The position numbers and the translations under genes were made by a program. Positions 17,215 to 46,210 of a DNA stretch of 46,210 nucleotides are shown in pieces. The DNA lies in the IMG/VR virus record IMGVR_UViG_3300017774_000291, positions 1 through 46,210 of that record; one strand, given 5' to 3'. Source of the DNA: a virus. Taxonomy: Duplodnaviria > Caudoviricetes. The stretch's first letter is position 1. Each line of letters starts with the position of its first letter. Under the pieces are notes generated by a model. It ran no database searches, had not been told where the DNA came from, and saw only the letters and a list, made by a program, of their open reading frames with translations.

Positions 17215-17855
17215 TAGACTTCCTCTAGAGTTACAGACACATTACAAAAATCGTAAGTATTTCTACCTCTTTTAACAACTGTCAAATCAAATGATGAAAA
17301 ATAAACTTCTACTAGTTCATTGTATTCACTAAGTCTATTAAATTGTGGGTCATCATTTGCATCTAACATATTGCTATATTTGTCAGCAGCAATCATCATC
17401 CAGAATGATCCAGGATTACTGTTGTACCAACGTCTCATCTCTTCTGCTCCAGCACCACCATCTGAGGTGTACTGTGTTAGGGATGCTGCATCAGGCTTTC
17501 CGTCTGCTCCAAACTCAGGATCTTTATTAAATGCTCTTGATGGAATCATTTCCCAATTAAGACTTACTCTTAGTTTATCTGCTACATGATAAGAACGCAT
17601 CTTAGCATTGATAGTTCTTTTTCTATTTTCAATTCTGTCACAAGAGTATTGAATTGGCTGTCTATTGTCATCTGTAAGTATTATGAAGTCTTCATATTCT
17701 ACCCCGGTTGGAACAAGTGTGGTTGCTCCAGCAATAGATAAATGTGTATCTTTTGTTCCATATGTTTTAGACCAAGCAATTGCTTGTGGTCTTTTAGGAA
17801 GGTTGCTTAAGTTCCAGCGGCCGTTTAAATATGAACTACTAGACAACTTTAACAC
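17214..17855 (-). CDS. putative distal tail protein
   Basis: immediately downstream of tape measure; ends VSVTLEEV. Confidence 0.6.
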   Translation of the reverse strand: MLKLSSSSYLNGRWNLSNLPKRPQAIAWSKTYGTKDTHLSIAGATTLVPTGVEYEDFIILTDDNRQPIQYSCDRIENRKRTINAKMRSYHVADKLRVSLNWEMIPSRAFNKDPEFGADGKPDAASLTQYTSDGGAGAEEMRRWYNSNPGSFWMMIAADKYSNMLDANDDPQFNRLSEYNELVEVYFSSFDLTVVKRGRNTYDFCNVSVTLEEV

Positions 17856-20800
17856 CTCTTAGGCTTCTTGACTCTACTTGTTTAATCTTAGACATTACAG
17901 CATTTGCTATTTCGTCAGGTGAGGCATCTGTTCCTGCAACATTAACATTAACGCTATAACTATTATTATACAGGTTAGAATTATTTTTTGCACTACCCTT
18001 TGGCATTGCTGCTCCTGGATAAATATTTCCATTTAATTGTTCTAGCAATGGCATGTAAGCATTAGCAACTGATTTTCTAATTACAAATTCTCCAGGTGTT
18101 AGTAATGCTGGAACTCTATCAGTATTTCCCATTCCTGGAACCATACTTCCGTAAGCCATTTTAATTGCTGGAGGGGCTTCTTTAGATCCTTTATAGTTAA
18201 CCATTCCACCCATTGCATAACGTGTTCCATTAATCTTTAGTCCATATCTACTAATTAATAAATCTCTTTCACCTTCACTCAAAACTTTATTAGCACTATT
18301 ATTAATAAATCTATTAAAATCTGAACGTGCATTTGCTTTAGGTGTGCCCTTTAATTGTTGATCTATTGCGTCAGTTATTTGTTTTGCTCTTTTTACGTAT
18401 TTATCTTGTTGTGCCATTGGTGGCTCTGAGCCAGTTCCGCTTCCTGGTGTTTGAGGAGTTCCTCCACTACCAAAGCCTGGAACTGAAGCACCCATGCCAG
18501 ATAATACTGCAGCAATTTGTTTGTAAAGATCAAGTATTGATGTTGTAGCAGCCAAAGTTTTTAATTCTAACTGATATCTGCTATCTGCTAACTGTTCTTG
18601 TAGTCTTAAGATAGGAATTTTTTCTTCTTCTATTTTTTTAATATCTAAACCTATTTGATATATTCTTTCATTTGATGCTTTGATAGCGTCTTCAATTTCT
18701 TTTCTTGTCATCAATACGCCATTAACGGTTATCTTTATTGCCTTAATAGCATTTTCTCTTTGAACCTCTAGGGCTTTTCTAGCATCTTCTATTTTATATA
18801 ATGCCTCTTGAGATGTTATTTCAGCAGCGGCTTGTGCTGCAGCCCCAATATCTCCACTTGTAAGTGCTGTTGCTAAACTAATTCTTGATTTTTGTCTAGA
18901 AGCATTTCTTTGGTTTGCATTATCAACCTTGTCTAATGCTTCAACTCTTTTATTATATGCTTCATTAATTTTTTCTTCTTCTTCTGATATTTTATCTAGA
19001 GACTTTTGTCTTATTTCATTTAAATCTTGCTCTTGATTAATTTCTCTTTGTTTTGAGTTTATTCTTCTATCAATTAATGTTAGTTGTCTGCTATAAATTT
19101 TATCTTGAAAATCAACAATTTGTAATTGTCTTTCTTCTGCTGTCATAGTACTTGCTAATATTTCATTTCTTCTTTGTAGCAATTGTTGAAATTCTTGTTC
19201 TGCTTTTTTTCTATCTTTTGTATTTTTAATACCAGCAATTTGTATGGCTAGTTCTTGGCTCATAGAATTTATAGCCATTGGAGATACTTTGTCTTTTTGT
19301 AGTTGCACAAGTGCCTGTTGATATTGTTTTGTAAGTTTAAGTTCTTCCCTCATTTGTTGAAGTGGGCTTTTTTCTCCAGTGCCTGTAGGGGTAGGAGAAG
19401 TTTCTGTTGTAGTTTTAGTTAGTCCTAACTTAGCAAGTGCATCTGCCCCTTGGCCAGGTCTTTGAACTTTTGTATTTGTTGCTAGTTGTAGTAGATTTAA
19501 GGTTTCTTTATCTCCAGCGTTTAATGCACCAATTAATACTGGTATTGTAAGAGGATCTAATTGTTTTCCAGCCATTTTTAAAACAGTTTCAAGCATGCTA
19601 GCATACGGTCCACCAAACTTTGCAATAATTTCAGTTTGAACTTTGCTATTTGATATATCTTTGTTTGTTTTTCTTAAATATTTATTTACTTCATCTATAT
19701 TAGATTTTATTTTTGGTGCTATTTCTCCAAATTTAATAACATCGTCTAAGTTTCCAGTATCTATTTGTAATTGAGTTCTTACAGATTCCGGTAAAGAAAG
19801 AATATTGGCTAACTGTCTTTGTACTTTATCTATATCAATTTCTTTTCCATCTTGTGTAATTTGAAAATTTATTATTTGTTCTTGAAGATTTGCATCGGAC
19901 AATCTTCCTATCTTAGCCATATAATCCTGAACACTTAGGCCTGCCTTTGTAGCATTGGCTTCTAAATTGCTTAATTGTTTATCGTCTAATCCAGCAATTT
20001 GAGCAGCAACATTTAAACTCATTTCTCCACTTAGTATCAAAGATTTTAATTTAGTTGCTATTCCTGTACTACCCTTGGCTAACTTATTAATCGCTGTATC
20101 AAAATCTGATTTAATATATTCAATTCCAGCATTTTTAAAGGCTTCTGTTACGCCAGCATTTATTGTTTTAGTTACTGGCCCTATAACATTGTTTAAATTA
20201 TTAAGAGCAACTGCTGCCGCTCTATTAGCAGTAGTATTCTGAGGTTTTCCTTGTATAGATTTTATCGCCACATCGTAATCTTGTATGGCTTTTTTAACAT
20301 CTTCTTTGTTAAAGAAATTTCCCATAATTTTTTGACTTGGAGAATTTTGTGCCATATTGTTTATAGTTCTAATATATTCTTCTGCAGATATTTTATTTTC
20401 TTGTAAGGCTAATGTAACAGTTGCTCTTGCTTCTCTTTCAATGGCTGCTGCCTGAACTGCTGCTTCTGCAATAAGTCCTTGTTGTATTTTATATTCTTGA
20501 GAAGATTTTACATCAAATAATTTAGTAATTCCCCCTACAAATCCTTTTGTTTGCTCTTCATATAAAAATTGTGATTGTTTTTTAATAGCCTGCTCGTCTA
20601 TTTTAGGAATTATAGATGATATAATTTCCATAGGATTGTCAAGAACATTTTTTCCATCTCTACCCACTATTTTTGTGATTTGAGCAGAAACGTCTATTCC
20701 TATTTGCTGATTACCTAACTCTACGCCAATTTCTGTTGCAATAGCCTTTGCTTCATCTGGAGTAATTATTCCAGAGACTACTTGTCTTATTAGTTGGTTA

Positions 20801-23800
20801 CGAAGAGCATCTACTGATTCTCCTCCTAATTTTGTAGCAGTTCTAATATCTTGAATTAATTTTTTACCTGCTTCAGACTGGACATATTGATTTGCTATTT
20901 GAGTAGCCTGTGGGTCTATTAAGCCAGCCTGTTGTTGTGCTAGCCTTGTAGAATTACTTTGTCTTCCAAAAGTTTCAGCAAACGCCTTAGTTGATTCTGC
21001 AGATCCATACATTGCTTTAACAAAAGTAGAACCAGATTTTTGAATTTCTTTAAATTTTTCAACGACTTTATATATTGCCATTCCTGCTAAAACAATTCCA
21101 GCAATCATCAATCCTAGTTTTGATGGCATTACTGCTAAAAGCATTGCCGCTGGTGTTAAAAATCCTAAGAAATTTCCTATACCTTTAGAAAGTTGATTTG
21201 TACTTTGTTGCATTTGCTGTCCAATCATTGGAAGCATAAATCCAGCAGACATCATACCCATTTGAGCAGTAGGGCCAATCTTAAATCCCTTGCTTGTTGA
21301 TTCTTGAACTACTCTTTGGTCTTGATCTGTAGCAAAATATTGAACACCAGGTATTTTTCCACCCATGTTATATCCAGATAAACTTCCATTGTTAATTGCT
21401 TTTAATAATGCCATATTGTTTCTAGTAGATTCTTTATTTACTATGAATTCCCCCGGAGTTAGCATGGCTGGAACTGTATCTGTATTTCCAGATCCAGGAA
21501 CTATGTTTCCCCTATTGTATTTAGCAACGCCACCCTTTTTGTACATTGCAGGACCACTATCTCCGTGATAAAGTTTATTGTAATTATCTATAGTCTTTTG
21601 TTGTTCTGCTATAGGCTTGTTTCTTATTGCATAGAATTTTTTATATAATGCACTTGTCATTGACCCCTGCATTTTTTCAAAATCTATTTTTCTTTTTATA
21701 TAATCTTCAATATCTGTTACAGGTCCTGTTTTAATACCTGTTCTTAGTTGTCCTGTTTGTGTAAGTTTGGCAAATTTAATAGCATTATCTACATTCATAC
21801 CACCTCTAACTAAATCAATTACTACGTCTTCACCATTTTTTGCCAATCCAGAAAGGTTCATTATCTTAGGAACTCCTGCGTTTCCTCTTTCAAATATTGC
21901 CCTTCCTCTTAGTCCACCTAGTCCATAGCCCGGAATTGCTCCACCCTTATTTCTTCTTATCATATTACCCATCTTTGTCATTTGACTTGGGGTTGTCATG
22001 TGAAGTCTTGTTCTTCCAGATATTGCTCTTCCACCTAAAATTGCTTTTTCTTTGCTATAGCCTTTTCCAAATCTTACTTTACCAATAGGACCTTGCTTTA
22101 TTCTATTTTGCAAAAATTGTGAAGAAGTATGTTCATCTAGATTTGATAATGTGAATAAGGCATCTTCAATATTAGAAACTTTTCCATACCCAGATTTTGA
22201 TAATGCATTAAATAAGTTTGATTTTGATTTTTTGTCTGCTTCTCCAGACGTTAATCCTTTTTGTAAAAGATTATTTTTATCACTAGCAAGAAGTCCTTCT
22301 AATATTCTTGCATTGTATAGGTCTGGATTTTTAATAGCACTGCTTAAAAATGAATATACATCAGGATATTTTCTAGGTGAAATTTTGTTATCTATTAAAA
22401 ATTGATATAGTTGTTTTGCATGATTTGAATTCAGTGGAAGATTGTCTGCCTGCATATATAAAGGCAATGTAGACTTATCTATACTTCTCATTTCTTTTGT
22501 ATTGTACAAACTATTCATTTGTCTATTAAAAGTAGCAGCATCACTTCCAGCAAGTGCAACGCTATCATATGCATAGTTTTTAGAAACTAACGCTCCATCG
22601 TTTGCGTAAAGAACTTTTCCACCCATGTTGTACATGTGAGCACCTTCAAAGCCAAGAGGTCTTTTATTTCCTCTCCAACTTTTTTGCATCTTTGTATATG
22701 AGCCTGAATTTAAATCTTGATAACCAGATCTAGGTCCAATCTTTCCTGTACTACTTCTCATTCTTTGTGTTATAACATTTGCAGTATCTTCTGATAATAA
22801 TCTTTGTAAATGATCTGGAGATAGTCTATTATATAAATCTTTATTGTGTAAGTCTTTTACAGAAACAAATTTAACATTACCATATTCTGGTCTATCCATT
22901 ACATCTTGAATTCTTCCAAAGCCTTTACTATCTAAGAATCTTATTTCTTTACCCGGATATTTTGCTGCAATACTATCAAAGTTATTTGAAAGTGTAGTCT
23001 TGTATGCAGTCTTTGCCCACTTTTGACCAGCAAATGCATCTATCATCCACATTCCAATATCGCTTGTCATTTCTTTTCTTAATTGATCTAGTGGTACGCC
23101 TCTCTTGTCAAACCCACCCATTGTTCTATTTCCAATTAACTGTTTATTTGTAGTTGGATTAACTAGATATACTAAATTGTTTAATAAGCCTTGTATACCC
23201 TCTTTAGATGCTGCACCTGCCACTGTTCCTTTGGTAGCACTGGCTCTTCTGTTTGATGTAAACGCTCCAAGTTCTGCTGTAGATTTTGATAATGCTTCTC
23301 TTGGTCCTAAGTATCCACCATGAGCGGCATAGGTAACTCCACCTTTATTGTATCCAGCACCACCACCATTGATTGAATAAAGCAATCCTAAATTCTTTTC
23401 AGTTGCTTGCTTGTTAACAATAAATTCTCCTGGTGTTAACATTGCTGGAACTGTATCTGAACTTCCAGTTCCTGGAACAGTAGACCCATCGCTCATAAAT
23501 ATTCTTCCACCAGAGTTTCTCATTTGCGGTGGTCTAATAATTCTTCCAGTTGCTGACTTTCCGGTCTTAGCAAGTCCTGCTGCTGATTGTCCAACTCCCA
23601 TTGTGTATGGAGCAAGTTTTGCTGCTTCCATCATTTTTGCAATAAGAATAGTATAGGAATCTCCTAAGTACTTAACAGCACCTGCAGCACCCATTGCTTG
23701 TGTAACTTGTTTTCTAAGTGCACTGTTTGTAAATTCTGTTGCAGTACCTAATTGCTGTGCAGCAAGGGCTGCTTCAATTTCTGCTGTTGAAAAATACTTT

Positions 23801-25575
23801 GTTGACTGAGTTGCGTTCTTAAATGCACCAACAATACCACCTTGTAAAAATCCTTTACCAAAAGCACCCATAAACTGAAACAGTTTTGCAAGGGTACCAG
23901 TTAAGTTCATTAATAAACCAAAGAACATAGTTCCAGCGGGTATAACAAGACCAGTAATGATAGTAGCAAAGGCTATAAACTTCTTTGAAAAGTCTGGAAG
24001 ACCATTAAAGGCATCTGCAATTCTTGTAGCAAAATTAACTAATGGAATTGCTAACTTAACAAATATCTCTCCTAAAGGGGCTATTGCTAGTTTAAACTTT
24101 TCTACCGCCGCTTTTAGTTGAACACTAAATGCTTCTTCAATTGTTTTTAATTCTCGATCAGCGGTCATGGCTAGTTCTTCTACGCTATAGCCCATGGTGT
24201 CCATAACTTGTCTTGCTTGAGATCCGTCTCTGATTAAGTTTTCAAACAATGCACCTAGACGAGCGTACTGATACTTTCCAAATACGTCTTCTAGTGCTTG
24301 CTGTTGTTGGAATTCTCCAAGTGTTGATAATGCGTTTGCAAATCCTGTAACTGTTTTCATCAAGTCACCTTGATTTGTTTGAATAATTGCGTCTAGATTA
24401 ATTCCAAATTTTCCTAAAGCCTCTGTTGCTGATTTGCTTGGATTAATTAAAGATCCTAAACCAGACTTTAGTGCGTTTGCACCTTGCTCTGCACTTACTC
24501 CACCTTCTTGCATTGCGGCTAAGAATACTGTTAAGTCTTTTACGCTACCGCCTAACCCTTCAATTACTGGTGCTACACGTGGAATTGCGGCAGCAATATC
24601 CTGTAGGCTTACAACTGTTTGATTTTCAACCATGTTTAGATAGTTGATGGTGTCTGCTAATTCAGCACCTGAAAGTTTAAATGCACTCTGAAGTGCTATT
24701 GTTGTTTCTAATGCAGCATTTTGATCCATTTGACCAAGTGTGGCTAATCTAGTAGCCTGTGAAACTGCGTCTGTTAAATCAGAGTTTCTTCTACCTGCTG
24801 CTGCAGCCTGTGCTGCAAGACTCATAGTATCTTTTACAGCAATACCATATTTAGTATATTCTCTACCTAAATCTTGTACTGCTTTTAAGTTTGATTGTAA
24901 TTCTTTTGGAGTAGTAAATAAATCTCCATATACCTTTTTAAATGCTACCGTTTGTTTTTCTAAATCAGCAAATACTTTTCCTGCTGTTGTTCCAAAGATG
25001 GTTAGTGGAACTGTAAAACCAACCATAAGTTGACGACCAGCCCATTGTACGTTCTTACCAAAATTTACAAGTTGAGTTGTTCCTTGTCTAAACATTGATG
25101 ATAAAATTTGAGTTCTTTGAGAAGCAATAGTTGCTTGATCAGCAAATGCTTGAAGTGGTCTAATTGCTAAAGCGTCTTGCATTCCTTTTGAGGATTTTCC
25201 AGTAGCAATAAATTGTGTTTGAAGAACGCTTGCTTTTTGTCTTGCCAAGTCTAGTGTTTCTGCAAACAGTGCACCATTTTTTACATACTTAGCACTAAAG
25301 TATTGACCTAGGGTTGCTTGACCTTTTTTAAGTGTATCGTCAAGTGCTCCAGCAGCGGTACGCATTTTTACTGTTTCAGCAGTAAACACCTTGCTTGAGT
25401 TAATCATGTCAGCAAGACTTGATGCATACTTTTGAGAGGCTGCTAATGAAGCAGCATTATTTTTATTTAATGATAAGAAAACAGAGTTGATCTGTTGTTG
25501 TAAAATCTTTAGTTCTGCGGAAGAATTTCCGGTATTGATTTCAATATCAACAATACCTTTTACCACTTCGGCCAC
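17839..25575 (-). CDS. tail tape measure protein with internal inserted domains
   Basis: 2578 aa, TP901-type core (approx aa 180-500), hydrophobic segments, coiled coils, position after tail chaperones, three DxVPAxLTPGEF motifs. Confidence 0.93.
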   Translation of the reverse strand: MAEVVKGIVDIEINTGNSSAELKILQQQINSVFLSLNKNNAASLAASQKYASSLADMINSSKVFTAETVKMRTAAGALDDTLKKGQATLGQYFSAKYVKNGALFAETLDLARQKASVLQTQFIATGKSSKGMQDALAIRPLQAFADQATIASQRTQILSSMFRQGTTQLVNFGKNVQWAGRQLMVGFTVPLTIFGTTAGKVFADLEKQTVAFKKVYGDLFTTPKELQSNLKAVQDLGREYTKYGIAVKDTMSLAAQAAAAGRRNSDLTDAVSQATRLATLGQMDQNAALETTIALQSAFKLSGAELADTINYLNMVENQTVVSLQDIAAAIPRVAPVIEGLGGSVKDLTVFLAAMQEGGVSAEQGANALKSGLGSLINPSKSATEALGKFGINLDAIIQTNQGDLMKTVTGFANALSTLGEFQQQQALEDVFGKYQYARLGALFENLIRDGSQARQVMDTMGYSVEELAMTADRELKTIEEAFSVQLKAAVEKFKLAIAPLGEIFVKLAIPLVNFATRIADAFNGLPDFSKKFIAFATIITGLVIPAGTMFFGLLMNLTGTLAKLFQFMGAFGKGFLQGGIVGAFKNATQSTKYFSTAEIEAALAAQQLGTATEFTNSALRKQVTQAMGAAGAVKYLGDSYTILIAKMMEAAKLAPYTMGVGQSAAGLAKTGKSATGRIIRPPQMRNSGGRIFMSDGSTVPGTGSSDTVPAMLTPGEFIVNKQATEKNLGLLYSINGGGAGYNKGGVTYAAHGGYLGPREALSKSTAELGAFTSNRRASATKGTVAGAASKEGIQGLLNNLVYLVNPTTNKQLIGNRTMGGFDKRGVPLDQLRKEMTSDIGMWMIDAFAGQKWAKTAYKTTLSNNFDSIAAKYPGKEIRFLDSKGFGRIQDVMDRPEYGNVKFVSVKDLHNKDLYNRLSPDHLQRLLSEDTANVITQRMRSSTGKIGPRSGYQDLNSGSYTKMQKSWRGNKRPLGFEGAHMYNMGGKVLYANDGALVSKNYAYDSVALAGSDAATFNRQMNSLYNTKEMRSIDKSTLPLYMQADNLPLNSNHAKQLYQFLIDNKISPRKYPDVYSFLSSAIKNPDLYNARILEGLLASDKNNLLQKGLTSGEADKKSKSNLFNALSKSGYGKVSNIEDALFTLSNLDEHTSSQFLQNRIKQGPIGKVRFGKGYSKEKAILGGRAISGRTRLHMTTPSQMTKMGNMIRRNKGGAIPGYGLGGLRGRAIFERGNAGVPKIMNLSGLAKNGEDVVIDLVRGGMNVDNAIKFAKLTQTGQLRTGIKTGPVTDIEDYIKRKIDFEKMQGSMTSALYKKFYAIRNKPIAEQQKTIDNYNKLYHGDSGPAMYKKGGVAKYNRGNIVPGSGNTDTVPAMLTPGEFIVNKESTRNNMALLKAINNGSLSGYNMGGKIPGVQYFATDQDQRVVQESTSKGFKIGPTAQMGMMSAGFMLPMIGQQMQQSTNQLSKGIGNFLGFLTPAAMLLAVMPSKLGLMIAGIVLAGMAIYKVVEKFKEIQKSGSTFVKAMYGSAESTKAFAETFGRQSNSTRLAQQQAGLIDPQATQIANQYVQSEAGKKLIQDIRTATKLGGESVDALRNQLIRQVVSGIITPDEAKAIATEIGVELGNQQIGIDVSAQITKIVGRDGKNVLDNPMEIISSIIPKIDEQAIKKQSQFLYEEQTKGFVGGITKLFDVKSSQEYKIQQGLIAEAAVQAAAIEREARATVTLALQENKISAEEYIRTINNMAQNSPSQKIMGNFFNKEDVKKAIQDYDVAIKSIQGKPQNTTANRAAAVALNNLNNVIGPVTKTINAGVTEAFKNAGIEYIKSDFDTAINKLAKGSTGIATKLKSLILSGEMSLNVAAQIAGLDDKQLSNLEANATKAGLSVQDYMAKIGRLSDANLQEQIINFQITQDGKEIDIDKVQRQLANILSLPESVRTQLQIDTGNLDDVIKFGEIAPKIKSNIDEVNKYLRKTNKDISNSKVQTEIIAKFGGPYASMLETVLKMAGKQLDPLTIPVLIGALNAGDKETLNLLQLATNTKVQRPGQGADALAKLGLTKTTTETSPTPTGTGEKSPLQQMREELKLTKQYQQALVQLQKDKVSPMAINSMSQELAIQIAGIKNTKDRKKAEQEFQQLLQRRNEILASTMTAEERQLQIVDFQDKIYSRQLTLIDRRINSKQREINQEQDLNEIRQKSLDKISEEEEKINEAYNKRVEALDKVDNANQRNASRQKSRISLATALTSGDIGAAAQAAAEITSQEALYKIEDARKALEVQRENAIKAIKITVNGVLMTRKEIEDAIKASNERIYQIGLDIKKIEEEKIPILRLQEQLADSRYQLELKTLAATTSILDLYKQIAAVLSGMGASVPGFGSGGTPQTPGSGTGSEPPMAQQDKYVKRAKQITDAIDQQLKGTPKANARSDFNRFINNSANKVLSEGERDLLISRYGLKINGTRYAMGGMVNYKGSKEAPPAIKMAYGSMVPGMGNTDRVPALLTPGEFVIRKSVANAYMPLLEQLNGNIYPGAAMPKGSAKNNSNLYNNSYSVNVNVAGTDASPDEIANAVMSKIKQVESRSLRGVKVV

Positions 25576-26251
25576 TATTCAATCACCTCGTAATCTAACC
25601 CTTCGCCAATACCGAATCCTGCTCTATGTGCTGCAGCACCCTGTAATGACACAATGTCATTTGGATTAGTTGTTTTACCACCACTAAATGCTTTGGCTTT
25701 AATTTTTTCCCAAGCATCTTGACCATTGGACGAATCGGAGTTTTTATCTAAATCAACACCTTGCATTGCGGCTAAGAATCTACGGTTATCGTTTTCTTCT
25801 TTTTGCTTTGCTTCTAGTATTGCTACTAATTCTGGCATCGATATGCTGTCCTCCATCTCCTCGTAATTCTTCCAAAAACCTAGAAGAAATACTCTGGATT
25901 CTAGTTCGGCTAGATCTAGTTCGTTCCAACTAGAGCCGCCGCTAGTGCGTTTGGGTCGTTCAACTTAATCCCAGCAGCAACTTCAATAACTTTATAAACA
26001 GTTGGAAGATCGATTAAATCTTCTAATTTTACCTTGTCAGCAATTTCTGGTTTATATTGTTTCATTGCGATAACTGCACAATCAAGTAGAAGATCCATAG
26101 ATTTAATATTGTCTTCTGCTATATTCTCATCAGATATTTTTTGAAATTCTTTCATAAAGTCTCTCAATATAGATATCTTCAATGGCTTCATTTCTATTTT
26201 TGTACCATCTTGTAATTCAATTTCTACAACTTCGTAAACACTTGTTGCCAC
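25575..26251 (-). CDS. tail assembly chaperone long form (gpGT-like, -1 frameshift, about 225 aa)
   Basis: The 25575..25856 frame stays open upstream to about 25964 and is -1 relative to the chaperone; slippery C CCA AAC lies in the overlap. Confidence 0.8.
25916..26251 (-). CDS. tail assembly chaperone short form (gpG-like, 111 aa)
   Basis: between major tail and tape measure; GTG at 26251 with AAGGAGG SD (track start 26320 spans a terminator). Confidence 0.85.
   Translation of the reverse strand: MATSVYEVVEIELQDGTKIEMKPLKISILRDFMKEFQKISDENIAEDNIKSMDLLLDCAVIAMKQYKPEIADKVKLEDLIDLPTVYKVIEVAAGIKLNDPNALAAALVGTN
25949..25955 (-). other. programmed -1 ribosomal frameshift slippery site CCCAAAC
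   Basis: X XXY YYZ heptamer in correct phase; downstream stem-loop 25907-25938. Confidence 0.8.
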
Positions 26252-26278
26252 GTAAAGCCTCCTTAAGACTATATAAAA

Positions 26279-26287
26279 ATTATAGCA
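26279..26287 (-). promoter_or_regulatory. extended -10 TGCTATAAT upstream of tail chaperone
   Basis: consensus match directly after a terminator. Confidence 0.55.
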
Positions 26288-26288
26288 C

Positions 26289-26317
26289 AAAACCCACCCC
26301 CCAAAATGGAGAGTGGG
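26289..26317 (-). terminator. intrinsic terminator after major tail gene
   Basis: CCCACTCTCCA-TTT-TGGGGGGTGGG followed by TTTT; G-U pairs work only on the minus-strand RNA. Confidence 0.8.
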
Positions 26318-26339
26318 CAAAGTGTTTTATTAAGTTGTA

Positions 26340-34117: not shown

Positions 34118-37100
34118 TTATACTGCTTTGACTTCTTTTATAACCCACGTTACGTTAGTTAATGCATCAAAGCCTTCTGAATTTGTAACAGCAGTTGCAG
34201 AATCATCAAACACTTGCTCAGAAAGTCCTAAATAAGTTTTAAAAGTACTATCTCCTGTTTGAGAAACTATATCTGTAATAGCAATTTCTCCCCATTGTTG
34301 CCATGTTAGTGGAACTGCTGTCTGTGTTGGAAAGGACCAGATGCCACTATCTAGATCTGTCCACTGTCTACCTGTAGTTAGTTTAGAGAAAAAATTAACA
34401 AATTCTTGTTGGAAGAATGCTACGTTATTAGCCAAGAAGCCTTCATATATTTCAAATTTACCTGTTTTAGAATTCAGGGTTATATCATTAGTATCTGTAA
34501 ATGATATTAAGATAGATGTCCATTCTAAAGGAATAATCTTCATTTGATCTATGATTCTTCCATTGATAAAGAATTTAGCATTGGTATATAGTACATTGTT
34601 CTTATATACTTTTAGGCTACCCCTTTTTCCGTTGAGTTCTGGGACCAAGAATATGTCGTAGTAATCGTTTATTCCAGCATTTGCTTCAGTTGCTATAATA
34701 GTTGCAATCTTTTTGGTAGATGAGATTACGGAGTCCTTGTTGTAAAACATCCAGAACTGTAAACCTGTAAGTTTATATTCGGTAGCATTGTGATCATTTA
34801 TTGGAAATGACAATCCTCTTAAAGTCTCAGACTCGTATGGCAAAACAGATATTCCTGAATCTCCTGTTAGATATAGGTATGGGGTAGAATCTCTATATAT
34901 TAAAAATGGATTTTTTTCTTTATAGTTATAGTTTAATCCAGTTCTATTAAATGGGATTATTGAGTGGCCACTTCTTGTTCCTATTCTATATTCTGAAGTC
35001 TCATCAAAAGCAAGGGATGTCAAAGACATTCTTTTTATATTTACTGGCTTGGTCTTAATTCCCCTGACCCTCATTTCTAAATGTATAGTTATATAGTAGT
35101 TTTCAAAATCTATTAATTCTTTAGGTGGATATATGATTGTTCCATCTACTACTTCAAATTTTTTATTGAGAGTAGAAAATTCTGGAACTAAATCTAGAAC
35201 CCTTTCTGATCCAATTCTTTCTGTAGTAACATAACTAGAATAAGGTTTCTTACCTACTAGTTCAAAGTCTTGTAGTGTTATATAAGACTGCATGCTAAAA
35301 GCATCTGCTACTGAAGCAGAACTAGTCATTGTTATTGGGCCTGGGACATCGATATTAAACTGTATTAGATCTAGATCATAGTATGGTGATGAGTTTGTGT
35401 CTTGAACGTAGGTTCCAAAATATGAAAGGGGTAGAGAGTCTTCCCAATATCCAGCACATCCTATATCAAAGAATATCTCCCCATATGAACTAATGGGCAA
35501 TAGTGTGTAATTTCCAACATATGTAAATGGATATATACCTTGAGTATTTGCCTGTGCTTCTGTAAAGAATATAGTTCCATTACTGTTTGTTAATCCCGAT
35601 ATGTCTTTTATAGTAAACATCTTATTATTAAATGTTAAAGATCTTATTTTTCCTGTAAATACTTTATCGTCATACCCACCTAAATTAAGAGATACGTTTT
35701 GAGGATTGTTAAAAAAGTTTCCTATGATTGCAAAATTGCTTTTTATCATCTTTTCTAAATCAAGACCTACAAACAAGTCTTGAGATGCTGATGCAGAATA
35801 GTTTGCTATTTGATAGGTTGAGGCAGATGTTTGAAATTCATAGTTTAAGCCACTTTGACTTAAGCATACTTTGAATTTATCAGAAGTAAATGAGTTTGAG
35901 AATGTCAGAATTGGTTCTCTATTTGAGAATGTAGGCAAACTTGATGGTGCTTCAAATACTCCAAATATTGATGAAACTGGGGTATTGATAGGATTAATAG
36001 AGTTAAAGTATATGCTTCCAAGAACTTGACTATATGAACCATTAGGTCTAATTTTTATAAAGGTTGGATCTTCTGTTTGAATATTATAGTTATCAATCAA
36101 AAAATTATTTGATATGTCACTATCTATTGTTACTGATGCTGATGTATATGAGAATTTTATTTCTGGTAATTCATAATCTGGAAAAGAAAGGGATCTTGAA
36201 TTACCGCTTAAATTTGAAAAGAAGCCAGATGACCATCTGTTCATATCTGGGTATGTCATGGTTGAGGTGTATTTAGAGAATGGGAAATCTACAAAGAAAG
36301 ACTCTCCTTTAAAGTCACTTACTATCTCTTCTGGATTATCTACGGCTTGAGCGTATACAAATCTTCTTCTTGCTATTTGCTCTGGAACAATATAGGGGTA
36401 TATGGCAACAGCGTCTAGTTCAAATGGATAAACATCGTCTGTAGAATAAAACCCTAACCAGTCTTTTGTTGAACTAGCAAAGGTAATGTTATTAACGTCA
36501 ATATCCATATCTATTACTAAGTCACCATTTAAAAGAACGCTTACGTTAGAGGTAGTGTATCTAATGTCTATTAACATTGGTCTATACCATTTTCCAACAA
36601 AGTAAGACTGGGTGTAAGGACCAACCTTTAATGTTAAAAATTCTTGCTCTACGTATAGACCATCTGAGTTAGAAACTGGTCCAAAGATTCTTACTGGATT
36701 TTGAGAATCTGTAAATAGCCTTAGCCAGAACTCTGCGGTTAAATTTTTATATTTTCCATCCTCATTTAAAAATGTTTTTCCTGGTATTGCTATTGATGGA
36801 ACTCCTGAGTTTACACAAGCGTTAATTCTTGTTATGTTTCCAGACCCAAATACCATAGGAAGGCTTGTATTATTTGCAAGCATTTTATTTTGATTTATAA
36901 AATAGTAACCTGTATCTTGATCGTTAAAGCCATATGGTTGTATTCGAGACACTTTGTAGGCACTAGCACTTACTGATATGGCATTATATAAACTTGAGTC
37001 TGTAAGAGATATTGGCTTTGATCCAGAGGTGTCTCTGTTATAAACCTCTGACCATTGTGCAAACGATATTCCGTTTACATAAAAATCAAAACTTGAGCCT

Positions 37101-37603
37101 ACTGATTGAAAGTTTAAATATCCAACTCTTAATATTGGCTTGACGCTAGAGCCAGATGGAACATCTACTGTGTAAGAAGCGTGTGTCCAGGTTGATGGAC
37201 TATCGTTTTCAAATCTTTGATAAGTAACACTTCCGGAAACATCTATTCCTAATTCTAAGTAATCTATACTAGTTCCAGACCTAAACCAAGTGCTTAAAGA
37301 TATTGATTTTTTATCTACATCTATATTGCTTTGATTAAAGAATGTTGGAAAAGTTGCAGTAGTAACAGATACGCTTGCTGATTTAGTAATATAAGATAGG
37401 CCATCTTCTGTTATTGGTCTATCGGCAAATGTTGATGAAACTACAGAGGCAGATGTTCCATTTGTAATGGACCAGGTTGATAGGCTTTGCGTTGAGGCAC
37501 TTAGTAAGTTTACAAAAGCAAAATCGTCATCTAGGGTCCATAGGGATATAGGATGCTCAGCAAATATTTTTGAAGCATATAGATTAGAAACAATATATGA
37601 CAT
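34118..37603 (-). CDS. large putative virion structural protein (beta-sandwich/lectin-like)
   Basis: 1161 aa, Ser/Thr/Asn-rich, HPISLWTLDD and LTAEFWLR LamG-like patterns. Confidence 0.6.
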   Translation of the reverse strand: MSYIVSNLYASKIFAEHPISLWTLDDDFAFVNLLSASTQSLSTWSITNGTSASVVSSTFADRPITEDGLSYITKSASVSVTTATFPTFFNQSNIDVDKKSISLSTWFRSGTSIDYLELGIDVSGSVTYQRFENDSPSTWTHASYTVDVPSGSSVKPILRVGYLNFQSVGSSFDFYVNGISFAQWSEVYNRDTSGSKPISLTDSSLYNAISVSASAYKVSRIQPYGFNDQDTGYYFINQNKMLANNTSLPMVFGSGNITRINACVNSGVPSIAIPGKTFLNEDGKYKNLTAEFWLRLFTDSQNPVRIFGPVSNSDGLYVEQEFLTLKVGPYTQSYFVGKWYRPMLIDIRYTTSNVSVLLNGDLVIDMDIDVNNITFASSTKDWLGFYSTDDVYPFELDAVAIYPYIVPEQIARRRFVYAQAVDNPEEIVSDFKGESFFVDFPFSKYTSTMTYPDMNRWSSGFFSNLSGNSRSLSFPDYELPEIKFSYTSASVTIDSDISNNFLIDNYNIQTEDPTFIKIRPNGSYSQVLGSIYFNSINPINTPVSSIFGVFEAPSSLPTFSNREPILTFSNSFTSDKFKVCLSQSGLNYEFQTSASTYQIANYSASASQDLFVGLDLEKMIKSNFAIIGNFFNNPQNVSLNLGGYDDKVFTGKIRSLTFNNKMFTIKDISGLTNSNGTIFFTEAQANTQGIYPFTYVGNYTLLPISSYGEIFFDIGCAGYWEDSLPLSYFGTYVQDTNSSPYYDLDLIQFNIDVPGPITMTSSASVADAFSMQSYITLQDFELVGKKPYSSYVTTERIGSERVLDLVPEFSTLNKKFEVVDGTIIYPPKELIDFENYYITIHLEMRVRGIKTKPVNIKRMSLTSLAFDETSEYRIGTRSGHSIIPFNRTGLNYNYKEKNPFLIYRDSTPYLYLTGDSGISVLPYESETLRGLSFPINDHNATEYKLTGLQFWMFYNKDSVISSTKKIATIIATEANAGINDYYDIFLVPELNGKRGSLKVYKNNVLYTNAKFFINGRIIDQMKIIPLEWTSILISFTDTNDITLNSKTGKFEIYEGFLANNVAFFQQEFVNFFSKLTTGRQWTDLDSGIWSFPTQTAVPLTWQQWGEIAITDIVSQTGDSTFKTYLGLSEQVFDDSATAVTNSEGFDALTNVTWVIKEVKAV

Positions 37604-37632: not shown

Positions 37633-39573
37633 CTACTTGCTAATATCTACTATCTCACATTCCCCCGCAACGCATGAAAGTTCTTGCGTTCCAGTGGTCC
37701 CATCTTCTTTTTCGTATAAAGATAGCATTTCCCATTGAATATTTGAAGGAGATTTTTTTACCCATTCTTCATATTCATTTTTAGAAATTTCTTGATATGG
37801 GGCCTGCTTATAAGTATGCTCACTCGCTGGTAAGAAAGATATACCACCAATTGAATCAAAGTTATCAAAAACCCATGCACCTACTCTTAGCCATTCATCT
37901 TCGTGGACATTGATAGTAACGCTAGGGTTATGTTCTGTCCAATAAGTTCTGTAAGTCTTCCACATTTCTAGATGATTTATGGCTGTTAAATCTTTTGTTA
38001 ATATTGCATTTTTTGGAGCCTTCTGAGGAAAATAAAACACTGTTGTTTCTTCAGGCTTCATTACATCTGGTTCACTTGGAATTCCTGAATCTTTTAAGAA
38101 TTGAGTTAACGGATCATTGTTAGAGCCGCGAACACTTCTAATGTAATATTCTGAATACCACGGATGAATACCGCTTGACACCCCGACCAATTGACTTACA
38201 GTGCCAGAAGGCTTAACACAAGTAATTGAAACAGAAGGATTAATGTTTAATTTTTTTGCTTCGTTATCATTAATTCTTACAGACTCTACTCTCATGTCAG
38301 TCAATAACTGTTCTAATGCTTTTCCTGCAGTTGAAGTAATTTTGTTTCCGTATATTCCTGTTAAAGATACTCCAAGTAATCTTTCTTCTTCGCAATTATC
38401 TTTCCATGTTTTTCTAATATATTTAAAGTTAGTTAAAGTAGATTGCCAGGTTCCAAGTATTGTTGCTAGCCTTACTTTTTCCATTAAGTCTTCTCTTGTA
38501 TCTTCTGCAGAAATAACTACCTCAGTTAAGTTACAAAATTCGTTTGAACGAAGAATAATTTCTCCGCATGGGTTAGTTCCAGAAACTAAAGAAGCGTCAC
38601 GTCTTCCAAATGACTCTACGTGTCTTCTTACGGAATCAATATTATAAATACCACGTTCTCCTGATTTTGATTCATATAAGTTTCTCCATTCACGTAAAAA
38701 TTGAGCGGTGTTTGGTTTTGTGTTATAGACTGCAGAATTATTTGCTAGTGAGCGTTGTGGTTGTGTTTCCCACCAAGATCCACTTTTAGCCTTTGCCATT
38801 TCAAAATCATCAAGGTTTGACAAACTAATAAGAGCACTTCTGCGTACTCCGCCAACAACTACAACTTCTCCAACTTTACACATTAAGTCATGTGCCTCTA
38901 TTGGTTTTAATCTACGGCCTGCAGCATTTTTAAATGTATTAACTGTAAATGTAAATAGAGCACTAAGTGGTCCAGGTCCAGATGCACGTCCACCAAATGT
39001 TTTTAATCTAGCACCTGCTGGACGAACTTTAGACATATCCCATTGTGGGATTTGACCTTGTGATAATAAAGCAATTAATTCTTTTAATGCTTTTGCCCAA
39101 CCAAGTTTAGAATCTTCTACAACAATTGTTGTTCCTGTTTGGTTAAATGATTCTGCTATAACTGGAAGACAGTCAACATATTTTGACTCAACGCTAAATC
39201 CAACACCAGTTCCGTTCATTAAAATATACATTGCTTCGTCAAATGCACGTAGACTATCTACTGCAATAAAAGAACAGTTGTATGCTGCGATGTGATCTCG
39301 CTCTAGGGCTGGACCAGCAGACATAAGTGCTCTCATTGATGGCATGATTCTATGATTTAAAATTGCATCAGTTACTTCGTCAAAAATTTTAGCATTTGGA
39401 CTATAGCCATAATTTAATACTAGATGATCTTTCATGAAGTTAATATAACGTTCTACTGTTTCTACCCAAGTTTCTCTTCTATTCTTTTCTTCTATCCACC
39501 TTGCGTACCTTGAGATGTGTATAAAGTTCTTGTATGGATCGACTATGGATCCGTTTTCATTGATAAATGGCAT
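37633..39573 (-). CDS. nrdJ: class II (adenosylcobalamin-dependent) ribonucleotide reductase
   Basis: GGVRRSA, GTNPCGEI, CNLTE, TCVKPSGT, C-terminal CVAGEC; no beta subunit nearby, no ATP cone. Confidence 0.92.
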   Translation of the reverse strand: MPFINENGSIVDPYKNFIHISRYARWIEEKNRRETWVETVERYINFMKDHLVLNYGYSPNAKIFDEVTDAILNHRIMPSMRALMSAGPALERDHIAAYNCSFIAVDSLRAFDEAMYILMNGTGVGFSVESKYVDCLPVIAESFNQTGTTIVVEDSKLGWAKALKELIALLSQGQIPQWDMSKVRPAGARLKTFGGRASGPGPLSALFTFTVNTFKNAAGRRLKPIEAHDLMCKVGEVVVVGGVRRSALISLSNLDDFEMAKAKSGSWWETQPQRSLANNSAVYNTKPNTAQFLREWRNLYESKSGERGIYNIDSVRRHVESFGRRDASLVSGTNPCGEIILRSNEFCNLTEVVISAEDTREDLMEKVRLATILGTWQSTLTNFKYIRKTWKDNCEEERLLGVSLTGIYGNKITSTAGKALEQLLTDMRVESVRINDNEAKKLNINPSVSITCVKPSGTVSQLVGVSSGIHPWYSEYYIRSVRGSNNDPLTQFLKDSGIPSEPDVMKPEETTVFYFPQKAPKNAILTKDLTAINHLEMWKTYRTYWTEHNPSVTINVHEDEWLRVGAWVFDNFDSIGGISFLPASEHTYKQAPYQEISKNEYEEWVKKSPSNIQWEMLSLYEKEDGTTGTQELSCVAGECEIVDISK

Positions 39574-40089: not shown

Positions 40090-40599
40090 ATGAGAAAGGT
40101 TATATTATATTTAATAGCATTTATTATTCTAGGTACTTATGTAAATCGACTGGATACGTCATTAATTGAATACCCCGCAAAAGCGTTAGTGGTCGTCCCT
40201 GAAGGACAGACCACTTCAAGTGTTTTAGGGGCCCTACAGGCCGCCAGAGAGGCTTCTAGCGGTACTGCAGCAAGAACTAGGGCTCAGTTCGAAGATCCTA
40301 AATCTGATCCTGCAATTGCTGCTTATCAACATTATTTAAAAATTTTAATTCCAAGAGGTGAGTGGTCTTGTTATTTTAACATTATTGAAAAAGAAAGCAA
40401 ATGGAATCCGCTTGCACAAAATCCTACCTCAACAGCATTTGGAATTGGTCAATTCATAGACAACACCTGGGAAGTAGTGGGTTTTGAAAAAACTAAAGAT
40501 CCTTATTATCAAATTGATGCAATGATTAAATACGTTGAATTAATTTATGGTGATGGCTGTAATGCTTGGGAATTTAAAAATAAACGTGGTTGGTATTAA
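40090..40599 (+). CDS. membrane-anchored/secreted lytic transglycosylase (SLT, lysozyme-like fold)
   Basis: N-terminal hydrophobic helix; KESKWNPLAQNPTSTAFGIGQF, QIDAMIKYV..YG..C.AW....GWY. Confidence 0.88.
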   Translation: MRKVILYLIAFIILGTYVNRLDTSLIEYPAKALVVVPEGQTTSSVLGALQAAREASSGTAARTRAQFEDPKSDPAIAAYQHYLKILIPRGEWSCYFNIIEKESKWNPLAQNPTSTAFGIGQFIDNTWEVVGFEKTKDPYYQIDAMIKYVELIYGDGCNAWEFKNKRGWY

Positions 40600-41687
40600 A
40601 GGTCTCTAATTTCTCTATAAACTTTATCCCATTCAGGACCACGCTTTTCCATAGTATGAAATTCTTTTACTATTCTCATATTTTCTTGACGTTCTTTGTT
40701 TCTTAATTTTTGATTTGATAGTTCTTCTAAATGAGATAACCATTCATCTTTAGTATGTGCTATTCTTCCTACCCCAAATTCTTTATTTAAAAATGTATAT
40801 TCTTCAAAGTCTGTAGATATCCAAGGAACTCCGGCAGCGGTATATTCAAGACCTTTAATAAATGACTTTGCTCTATTAAATTCAACACCACTTAATGGAA
40901 CAATACCAATGTCTATTCTATTAAACATCTTTGTATAACTTAAAATTGGCTGCATACCCTCTGATGAATATAGTTTATGAGGAACTCCTAGTTGCTCTTC
41001 TACCGTTGGAGCGTTTATAATATGACCTGAATGATGAAATCTCCATTGTTTCTTTTCTAAATATTCTCCTACAAAAGGGCTTAATGTTTGAAGATCATTT
41101 GAACGCCAAGGTGTTGCTCCTACCCATCCAACTGTAGGGTATAAGCCTGACTTATCTTTTCTAAAATTAAAATATTGACTATCTACTCCATTACGAACCA
41201 TGTAAATAGGTTTGTTAGGATATTCTTTTTTATAGTAATTATACAAAAATGGTGTAGAGGTAATTAAAGCATCTGCTAACTCCATACCCTTAAAATAGTG
41301 ATCTCTATTGTTCTTAGGGTTAGTCTTAGGATCTGTGGCTACATATGCCATGTTAGATGGCTCTAAGCCAGCATGGTGATCATCTATATCTATTACTATT
41401 TTTTGACCTATTGATTGTGCTTGAGGAATTTGACTAACTACACTTTCAAGCATCATTAATTTTAATACAACTATGTCCCAACCATGAACTGCTTTTTGAT
41501 CTGGAATTAATAAACCATATCCGTGATTAGGATCAAAACCAGGAAATCCCATTCCAGTTTCCCAACCAAACTTTTTTAACTCTGTCATTGGTAAATAACA
41601 ACGATACCAAGCACAACCATTTGGTTGTAATGGATTTGTACCAAAAGACCAGTCGTATGTTAAAAATGCTATTGTTGGTTTTGCCAT
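40596..41687 (-). CDS. glycosyltransferase (GT-B fold, GT4-like)
   Basis: IDIDD, STPFL, VRNG, VGWVG, DIGIVPL..FNRAKSFIKGLEYTAAGVP. Confidence 0.88.
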   Translation of the reverse strand: MAKPTIAFLTYDWSFGTNPLQPNGCAWYRCYLPMTELKKFGWETGMGFPGFDPNHGYGLLIPDQKAVHGWDIVVLKLMMLESVVSQIPQAQSIGQKIVIDIDDHHAGLEPSNMAYVATDPKTNPKNNRDHYFKGMELADALITSTPFLYNYYKKEYPNKPIYMVRNGVDSQYFNFRKDKSGLYPTVGWVGATPWRSNDLQTLSPFVGEYLEKKQWRFHHSGHIINAPTVEEQLGVPHKLYSSEGMQPILSYTKMFNRIDIGIVPLSGVEFNRAKSFIKGLEYTAAGVPWISTDFEEYTFLNKEFGVGRIAHTKDEWLSHLEELSNQKLRNKERQENMRIVKEFHTMEKRGPEWDKVYREIRDL

Positions 41688-44251: not shown

Positions 44252-46210
44252 CTATCCATTTGTAGTACTTTGACTTCCAGAAGTTGAATTATCTGAATAA
44301 GCGTTTGTAGCAGAAACACCAAAGAAATTTCCAAATCCACGCATTCCTGTTCCATTTTCAATTCTTACTCCATTAAGAGCAACATTTGAATTTTCTTTAA
44401 AACCTCTATTTGAATTAGTAGAACAGTTAGAACAATTACCTTCATATATTATATAACTATAAGTATTATTAGTATTTTGTGAAACATCTTTGATAACATT
44501 ATTAGATACCATTAATGCTGAACTACTAGTTTTTATGCTAATGCCATGATTTCCTATATTTTCTAATCTATTACCATTTACAATTGCATCTATTAATGTT
44601 GTAAAGGCTATTCCATTTACCCCAAAATTTTTAATATGATTATTGTTTACTGTGACTCCGTCATAGTTTACTACGTATACTCCACTGTGTCCAGAGGTAG
44701 AATTTACACCTTCAATTTGATTTCCAGTAATAATTAAGTTTTTGCATTGTTGACCACTTGTAATTCTATCAGCCTGATCAAACCCAGCACCTATTCCAGC
44801 ATAACAATTTTTAATAATGTTGTTAGCAATAACAGTATCGTCATATGCAACGTCTAGTCTTATAGCATATTCTGTCATTGAGTCAAAAGTATTTCCAACC
44901 ATCTTTACATTTGTATGTTTAACTCCCGATGTGTATGAATGAGATCCTATTCCTGTTGGCCAAGAAGTTGTTCCAGCAGTTCCTGAAGGTCCAAAGTAAC
45001 AATTTTCCACTACAACATCTGTACAAGGAGTATTATCGTAAGAACCAAAAGCACCAAATACTCCAGAACTTTTTGCTAAATCTATTTGTACTGCTTCTGA
45101 ATATGCTCTACTTCCAGTATCTTTATAACCAACAAATCTACAATTTGATATTCTTACATTTTTACTTGAGTTAACTTCAATAGCATGGTATCCACCAACG
45201 TTGCTAATAGTAGCGTCTTGAATAATAATATTAGCACCATGGCCAATACTTATACCCATTGCTGGAGTTGATGGATATGCTTGACCTCTGCATTCCCATA
45301 TCCCACCAATAATTTTAATATCAGTTTGTCCAGCATATCCACTATAACTTGCTCCACCAGCACCATTGATAATCATATTAGATGTATGTTGTCTAAACAT
45401 TACTGCTTTTTGAGATAGCAACAAAGTAGTTCCTGTATAAATTTCTAATCTACTTCCTAGGTTGTAAGTACCAGTAGGAATATATACAGTTCCACCCCCT
45501 GCATCTCTTGCAGCATATAATGCATTTTGAATTTTAGTTGCAGAATCTCCCTCTCCAGCAGAAACTCCATAGTCTCTAACAACATCATAAAAATTACTTG
45601 CTTTTTGATTTACGGATGCAGAACTAGCACCCAGATCTTCATATGTAGTTCCATTATTTGTAAATTGCCATTTATCAGATGTCTCGTTCCATTTAATAGA
45701 AACGTTGTTTGAAGTTCCTCTTTCTACCTCTATTCCAGCATCTAGCACAGGAGTAGCACTTGCTGTAGAGTTTAGTGTAATAATATTATCAGCAACTAGT
45801 AAGTTAACAGTATTTAAATTAACATTATTTCCTATAGTATATAAAGATCCATTTACGGTTAAGTCTCCATTAATAGTCGCAGAACCAGATACCGTCATGG
45901 GTCCTGGCGTTATTAAATTAGAGGCTAGATATAAGTATGCTGCACCATTTAATAAATCTACTCCCACCTGATTTGCTTGAGATGTTATATTTAACACTCC
46001 AGTATTTTCAATACTTATAGATCCATTTCCATCATTATAGGTTAAATTAACTCCAGTATGTGAGGCAGTATTAAACATTGATGCTACTTCATCTTGAATT
46101 TGTTCTTGTGTATAGTTTATTATTTTTACCCAGGCATTATTATGAGAATAATACATTGATCCTGTACCGCTTACATATGCCCATTTTCCAGTATTTGATG
46201 AGGCTGATGG
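44252..46210 (-). CDS. tailspike-like protein with pectate-lyase-type parallel beta-helix (5' truncated by window)
   Basis: VRDYG..D..IQNAL..GGGTVYIPTGTY, repeated I.NN.I rungs, AGIEVERG fibre motif; frame open to the window edge (PSASSNTGKWAYVSGTGS-MYY). Confidence 0.85.
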   Translation of the reverse strand, partial: PSASSNTGKWAYVSGTGSMYYSHNNAWVKIINYTQEQIQDEVASMFNTASHTGVNLTYNDGNGSISIENTGVLNITSQANQVGVDLLNGAAYLYLASNLITPGPMTVSGSATINGDLTVNGSLYTIGNNVNLNTVNLLVADNIITLNSTASATPVLDAGIEVERGTSNNVSIKWNETSDKWQFTNNGTTYEDLGASSASVNQKASNFYDVVRDYGVSAGEGDSATKIQNALYAARDAGGGTVYIPTGTYNLGSRLEIYTGTTLLLSQKAVMFRQHTSNMIINGAGGASYSGYAGQTDIKIIGGIWECRGQAYPSTPAMGISIGHGANIIIQDATISNVGGYHAIEVNSSKNVRISNCRFVGYKDTGSRAYSEAVQIDLAKSSGVFGAFGSYDNTPCTDVVVENCYFGPSGTAGTTSWPTGIGSHSYTSGVKHTNVKMVGNTFDSMTEYAIRLDVAYDDTVIANNIIKNCYAGIGAGFDQADRITSGQQCKNLIITGNQIEGVNSTSGHSGVYVVNYDGVTVNNNHIKNFGVNGIAFTTLIDAIVNGNRLENIGNHGISIKTSSSALMVSNNVIKDVSQNTNNTYSYIIYEGNCSNCSTNSNRGFKENSNVALNGVRIENGTGMRGFGNFFGVSATNAYSDNSTSGSQSTTNG

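Follow-up and report, generated by a model that had tools for sequence, protein, structure and literature searches.

The tape measure protein (TMP) specified by the window, by which we mean the whole 46,210-nucleotide stretch of viral DNA analysed here, carries between two copies of a conserved box an array of three predicted globular modules, and related phages exchange such modules at short, conserved glycine-glycine joints. The reading that we favor, at a probability of roughly 0.57, is that of a recombinational cargo array, the modules of which would be unfolded in the tail, ejected together with the TMP, and active in the cell while still tethered to it. Judging from the sequences, an exchangeable set of host-directed proteins likely enters the cell by way of the tail.

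The following features of the gene are used below (aa, residues of the protein):

17839..25575, minus strand: tape measure protein (TMP), 2,578 aa (open reading frame; PF10145, E 6e-27; TMP PHROGs)
24277..24882, minus strand: PhageMin_Tail domain (PF10145), aa 232-433
23902..24096, minus strand: hydrophobic cluster 1, two predicted membrane helices, aa ~494-558 (hydropathy)
23353..23520, minus strand: marker RNSGG and box 1 (GG-PGxGxxD-VPAxLTPGEF-helix), with profile matches in Douge gp16, JBD30 gp46, and lambda gpH
22633..23352, minus strand: module 1, aa 742-981, marker and slot-1 domain (Asn800, Asn810, His980), predicted circularly permuted His-Me-finger-like nuclease
21955..22632, minus strand: module 2, aa 982-1207, marker and unnamed helical domain, in 3 of 82 cassettes
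21544..21954, minus strand: module 3, aa 1208-1344, marker and unnamed small helical domain, in 15 of 82 cassettes
21331..21543, minus strand: marker YKKGG, box 2, and the next marker YNMGG (motif scan)
21052..21183, minus strand: hydrophobic cluster 2, two predicted helices, aa ~1465-1508 (hydropathy)
18022..18219, minus strand: marker YAMGG and box 3, the C-terminal copy, near the C-terminal end like the JBD30 hook and the lambda gpH motif

The protein is a siphophage tape measure protein of the PF10145 type. The PF10145 domain scores 95.2 bits against a cut-off of 33.2, membrane helices are predicted, and the gene order runs from the tail tube through two small genes in the chaperone position to the long TMP and then to the tail-tip genes, identical to the tail gene order of Streptomyces phage Muntaha; the two small open reading frames occupy positions 25575-26320. 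The nearest cultured matches are TMPs of Streptomyces phages (~31-35% identity over the N-terminus), all sequencing runs that contain the stretch are freshwater or lake metagenomes, and we infer an actinobacterial host. The TMP gene is followed by a 213-aa open reading frame without a family match and then by a minor tail protein. Elsewhere the window contains a 1,161-aa open reading frame without a family match (34118-37603), a B12-type ribonucleotide reductase (37633-39573), an SLT transglycosylase gene on the plus strand, opposite to nearly all other genes (40090-40599), a glycosyltransferase-like gene (40596-41687), and a beta-helix protein (44252-46156).

The box VPGxGxxDxVPAxLTPGEF occurs three times, as the first-pass annotation had it, at aa 700, 1359, and 2479 (nucleotides 23478-23422, 21501-21445, and 18141-18085), and all the short markers that it listed are present: RNSGG at aa 686, YNKGG at 742, YNMGG at 982, RNKGG/YGLGG at 1208/1217, YKKGG at 1345, YNMGG at 1402, and YAMGG at 2453. 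Most of them lie between boxes 1 and 2, where all had been placed, but RNSGG, the second YNMGG, and YAMGG flank the boxes from outside. The marker pattern [YFR][NAKG]xGG matches 9 times, against a mean of 0.68 and a maximum of 5 in 1,000 shuffles, and TPGEF is found 3 times in the TMP against 0 expected from shuffles; the repetition of motif and marker is far above chance. The hydropathy profile also agrees with the earlier placement of the block between two hydrophobic helix clusters. Across the 12 closest relatives, box 2 keeps 86-96% identity. Contigs from other runs span the module joints (records 6, 21, 23, and 29), so the module order in the window is not a misassembly, and this source of the cassette is ruled out.

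The three segments between boxes 1 and 2 (architecture M1|M22|M4) are basic, as had been described, with net charges of +15, +13, and +9 and lengths of 240, 226, and 137 aa including markers. Nor is similarity detected among them: the families of modules 1 and 2 match each other at E of at least 0.06, and module 3 is linked to neither among the best 80 matches. The structure prediction proposed for these segments returned globular modules, with three separate domains in the model of the cassette (overall pTM 0.35) and markers in low-confidence linkers of pLDDT below 50. Their description as non-coiled-coil needs some refinement, since segments 2 and 3 are predicted to be all-helical, but as short broken helices, nine in module 2 (pLDDT ~60-89, in a model that rests on only 3 rows) and five in module 3. 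Pfam, PHROG, and NCBIfam gave no name for any of the three modules, fold search gave no match for modules 2 and 3, and an ESM Atlas search with module 1 gave no usable match.

For comparison we collected 80 viral loci, 45 metagenome loci (L096 was left out as a likely self match), and 22 other proteins. Together with the window, 114 sequences reach the second internal box and yield 82 sequence-distinct cassettes, near-identical ones being counted separately; the remaining sequences are incomplete or, in the case of L025, have a single internal box. Splitting the 82 cassettes at markers and comparing the modules with one another by HMMER resulted in 165 modules, 36 clusters, and 39 architectures, with one, two, three, four, and five modules in 37, 15, 24, 4, and 2 cassettes, respectively; the split is imperfect, as it overlooked markers in L070, L113, and P0020 and set false ones in L034, L054, and L112. 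The family of module 1 itself recurs in 29 of the 82 cassettes. Almost all modules (164 of 165) are net basic, and a membrane helix is found inside none of the 82 cassettes. Single-module scans of viral contigs brought nothing new. The classical layout of polymorphic toxins was considered and rejected: the modules are internal, no immunity-like gene was found directly after the TMP, and the 125 sequences (1.8 Mb) contain 0 module matches outside the TMP frame. As to unusual forms, TMPs with one internal box only (L025, P0046, and P0053) possibly represent a state before box duplication, Gordonia phage Bosnia has three boxes with no named domain between them, and in L027 (4582-5412) the TMP frame ends after 276 aa within the contig, owing to either an assembly error or a broken gene.

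A region-by-region identity comparison of the window with 16 relatives addressed the suggestion that the flanks are conserved while the segments are exchanged. The segments do swap, and the N-terminus, the boxes, and the C-terminus are conserved, but aa 1521-2440 are also mosaic, at 27-68% identity. Six relatives (P0004, P0006, P0007, P0008, P0011, and P0012) share 97-98% identity with the window over aa 1-685; the figure is 83-93% for module 1 and 79-89% for module 3 but only 19-23% for the middle slot, which holds a family other than that of the window's module 2. In P0002, module 2 is kept (94%) and module 3 is swapped (28%). The mosaic region downstream (positions 18256-21015), beyond hydrophobic cluster 2, is helical and may be a host-range or channel segment; its identity is 29-68% in relatives whose N-terminus is 92-98% identical. 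Since mosaicism continues downstream of the cassette, variability by itself is not specific to cargo.

The markers had been proposed as domain boundaries, which is borne out both by the predicted globular modules and by swap points located at the markers. Where two cassettes have one module in common and diverge at its neighbor, identity on the right-hand side breaks off inside the marker, at a depth of 5-17 aa (46 of 46 pairs); on the left-hand side it stops 0-4 aa from the marker in 38 of 39 pairs, and the one exception stems from a missed marker. Since this test rests on marker-defined modules, we added a marker-independent one: for local alignments of at least 70% identity, the position of every internal end was compared with the range from -8 to +25 of a marker. 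Near a marker lie 92 of the 164 ends, whereas 1,000 random placements put 20 there on average and never more than 36; the 72 ends away from markers include many just outside this range. Within one gene, the marker DNA forms repeats of ~45 nt with 60-87% identity, and in the joint peptide the residues N, G, and G are conserved in 147, 161, and 153 of 165 cases, respectively. In ungapped comparisons, dN/dS is 0.16-0.52 in six module pairs against 0.05 in one N-terminal pair.

The first slot of the array is constant in its occupant. In each of the 82 cassettes the leading module belongs to a single divergent group, defined partly by iterated HMM and, for M1/M25, M2, M12, M21, and M32, by motif and alignment by eye. 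An alignment of 42 sequences has a mean column identity of 13% and one invariant residue, an Asn. A His motif is present in all 45 non-redundant locus modules examined: in 27 of them a small residue followed by His is found 39-77 aa before the invariant Asn and not at the end, and in the other 18 (~40%), including that of the window, the motif is near the module end (in the last 32 residues in 17 cases, slightly earlier in L064), one of the 18 having an upstream match as well. These complementary positions, upstream or terminal, point to circular permutation, and the sequences indicate that the family exists in two circularly permuted forms, the window having the His-last form. The fragments NLVYLVNPTTN and FEGAHM, earlier flagged as weakly HNH-like, turn out to be the two halves of the conserved motif in permuted order, which lends weight to the HNH suggestion, but fold searches brought no confirmation of it.

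In the model of an unpermuted member (pLDDT 89.6), a strand at residues 8-12 ends in the His and is followed by a long loop, a strand at 45-49, and a helix at 50-56 with the invariant Asn53. The model of the window's module 1 is alpha/beta, with the C-terminal EGAH in a strand (moderate confidence) and a strand at 15-18 followed by a helix at 20-27. Thus a near-invariant His is predicted at the C-terminus of a beta strand, and a second strand leads to a helix with Asn in its first turn. A loop Asn, common but often replaced by D, G, T, or S, stands 10 residues before the helix Asn; the corresponding spacing in HNH is 9 residues. The residue before the His is small (A, S, T, or G, once L). This arrangement resembles that of His-Me fingers as defined in the available portion of their classification (PMC5714182), namely a His ending a strand, a long variable loop, and a further strand that continues as a helix bearing Asn in the first turn. 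Unlike these, the slot-1 family lacks D, E, or H before the His, its loop Asn is not invariant, and it has no fold-search match: no His-Me protein is among the matches listed for slot 1, which are dominated by the helical part, and a PDB sequence search with the slot-1 profile gave nothing credible. In the same portion of the classification text the string "permut" does not occur. We speak of module 1 as a predicted His-Me-finger nuclease, a call made from motif order and modeled secondary structure.

A slot-1 profile search of 1.84 billion proteins gave 35 matches; 32 of the 33 new ones carry the box, and the other two are TMPs already in our set. At the search sensitivity used, the family looks confined to these TMPs, and it had no match in cultured phages. 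HNH homing enzymes are common in phages, and a nuclease that occupies slot 1 in 82 of 82 cassettes and is extremely divergent could be imagined to cut the DNA of co-infecting relatives and so to spread its own cassette. We consider such homing or anti-competitor activity highly improbable, as the family occurs almost only inside the TMP slot and is fused to a structural protein, with non-nuclease modules in the other slots.

Slot 2 may hold further nuclease-like domains, to judge from motif spacing. The second-slot module of P0036 (from aa 1022), which has no Pfam match, shows a His...Asn-x8-Asn spacing that we take to be the HNH pattern. Families M14 and M11, which replace module 2 (L002, 12944-13759; L035, 12965-13906), have a conserved His and a later Asn, and M11 weakly resembles module 2 of the window (E 0.003-0.008 in comparisons inside the module set).

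The first-pass annotation suggested that the segments are cargo domains. For the window this has yielded no names, but enzyme-like modules do occupy the same slots in relatives. Pfam and PHROG scans of 53 modules gave one match above the Pfam cut-off, a GNAT acetyltransferase domain (PF00583, 23.4 bits versus 20.7), and an NCBIfam scan of 15 modules gave none. By their motifs, some relatives' modules are presumably ADP-ribosyltransferase (ART)-like and kinase-like; weak leads in this direction are an ART match in the ESM Atlas (score below 0.9) and a PI3K-like match (E 0.089), and PDB sequence searches with the ART-like and kinase-like profiles gave nothing credible. In the giant TMP P0044 (5,284 aa), the region aa 679-4090 comprises four boxes, a pair of slot-1 domains, and a series of about eight modules, whose motifs are GNAT-like (weak match, E 0.026), kinase-like, ART-like, and of the HExxH peptidase type (weak match, E 0.17), the last seen in this protein only. 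In P0054, an Amidase_2 domain (PF01510, above cut-off; aa 1929-2068) directly behind a later box copy is cell-wall cargo at the same joint.

These observations bear on a structural or adaptor role, in which the modules would adjust the length of the tail, hold the leading end of the DNA, or touch host envelope proteins, and enzyme motifs would be incidental relics. Such a role would be suited by the all-helical, unnamed modules 2 and 3, by the basic charge of nearly all modules, by the equal variability of the downstream region, and by the TMP of the cultured relative Muntaha (L143, 6911-13177), which does without a slot-1 domain and has one weak box near the C-terminus (aa 1637-1687). Yet a spacer would need no globular folds, the GNAT domain passes the Pfam cut-off, and in slot 1 the His and the invariant Asn are kept at 13% mean column identity, even across circular permutation. 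We regard a structural or adaptor function as quite improbable.

The box itself is already known from TMPs, where it lies close to a region of processing. The box profile has two matches in gp16 of mycobacteriophage Douge (E 6e-9) and one each in JBD30 gp46 (residues 1019-1070, E 0.045) and lambda gpH (residues 731-784, E 7e-4, probability 27%); the window's TMP differs in having three boxes, two of which fence a cassette. In gp46 a "hook" is predicted at 1022-1066 and a cut after it has been speculated upon (PMC11445458, in the part available), and the accessible sections of the Ur-lambda paper (PMC12617516) describe a ~14-kDa piece cut from the glycine-rich region of gpH, with the exact site unknown. 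By mass, ~14 kDa puts the lambda cut near residues 713-720, 13-20 residues before FATGG (733), and T5 pb2 is cut after Arg1127, which frees a metallopeptidase (PMC10038345, as far as accessible). None of this ties cleavage to the GG itself. A prediction of the box as a homotrimer, with a score of 0.03, gave no answer.

It is in this light that a polyprotein has to be weighed, with GG joints serving as the very protease signal by which TMPs are matured near their C-terminal box, and modules freed while in the tail or during ejection. At the protein level the joint is conserved, and it looks like the beginning of the box, whose lambda copy adjoins the glycine-rich cut region; T5 pb2 is cut to free an enzyme, and the permuted His strand ends right at a marker, as would suit a free end. 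Against this, the lambda cut falls upstream of FATGG and the T5 cut follows an Arg, the domain scan named no protease in the window's TMP, a mid-chain cut before ejection would part the two membrane clusters, and joint conservation is also explained by recombination alone. We find release by joint cleavage rather unlikely. Likewise doubtful is a more far-reaching proposal, in which siphophage TMPs in general are an effector-delivery platform, a duplicated maturation signal makes them processed polyproteins with slots reshuffled at the DNA of that signal, and, in this clade of lake phages, a new TMP-restricted family of His-Me nucleases with two circularly permuted natural forms always leads the array and is released into the cytoplasm before the genome.

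The recombinational cargo array would work as follows. Related phages exchange predicted folded domains at a conserved GG joint of 12-16 residues, the DNA of which (~45 nt) would be the crossover sequence, while its peptide would link the modules flexibly. Inside the tail tube the modules would be unfolded, and they would leave with the TMP before the DNA; delivery into the host is suggested by the ejection of the TMP in lambda and T5. They would then refold, probably on the cytoplasmic side, a side that two helices in each flanking cluster do not fix. There the GNAT-, ART-, and kinase-like modules could meet acetyl-CoA, NAD+, and ATP, and the basic slot-1 domain nucleic acid. The modules would be early host-directed effectors that work while tethered, and cutting at the joints is not required by any result.

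If this is true, the tail ruler itself offers a pre-infection route of delivery whose insertion points are defined, about 35 module families are candidate anti-defence or host-takeover proteins, and a simple sequence rule is available to find more of them, along with a blueprint from nature for equipping phage tails with cargo. The cut site in TMPs, unknown in lambda according to the available sections of PMC12617516, also becomes a testable question through the repeated internal copies. Long-tailed phages are thought to be less well equipped than myophages for protein injection (PMC9503650, in the part accessible).

Several known systems share features with the array. Polyvalent proteins combine ART, kinase, GNAT, and peptidase classes in one injected chain (Iyer et al. 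2017, PMC5512222, in the sections available); here, too, at least two unrelated conflict domains occur in one chain and vary between relatives, and the same effector-type classes are seen or suspected in the relatives. In contrast to polyvalent proteins, the carrier here is the TMP and the modules are bounded by one repeated joint; their release is tied in the available text to MPTase domains, none of which was named in the window's TMP, and the term "tape measure" does not occur in the accessible main text of that paper. T5 pb2 (PMC10038345) and the TMP of mycobacteriophage TM4, with an embedded enzyme motif as cited in the available part of PMC13277306, likewise carry an enzyme in an ejected ruler, which T5 frees by a cut. 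Theirs are cell-wall enzymes near the C-terminus, whereas the array described here lies mid-chain between membrane clusters, is variable in number, and includes, in relatives' modules, enzyme classes that need cytoplasmic cofactors. The Sle1/Tme TMP-related effectors of actinobacterial contractile injection systems also join a TMP-like scaffold to an exchangeable functional domain (PMC13277306, in the same part), but they are cargo of a bacterial nanomachine with one C-terminal domain, in contrast to an internal array in a phage ruler. A literature search, confined largely to freely readable main texts, found neither a joint-delimited swappable array in TMPs nor a permuted His-Me domain in them. 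TMP-borne enzymes and polyvalent proteins are already known, and what this study adds is the measured breakpoints and the constant slot with its permuted His-Me-like domain.
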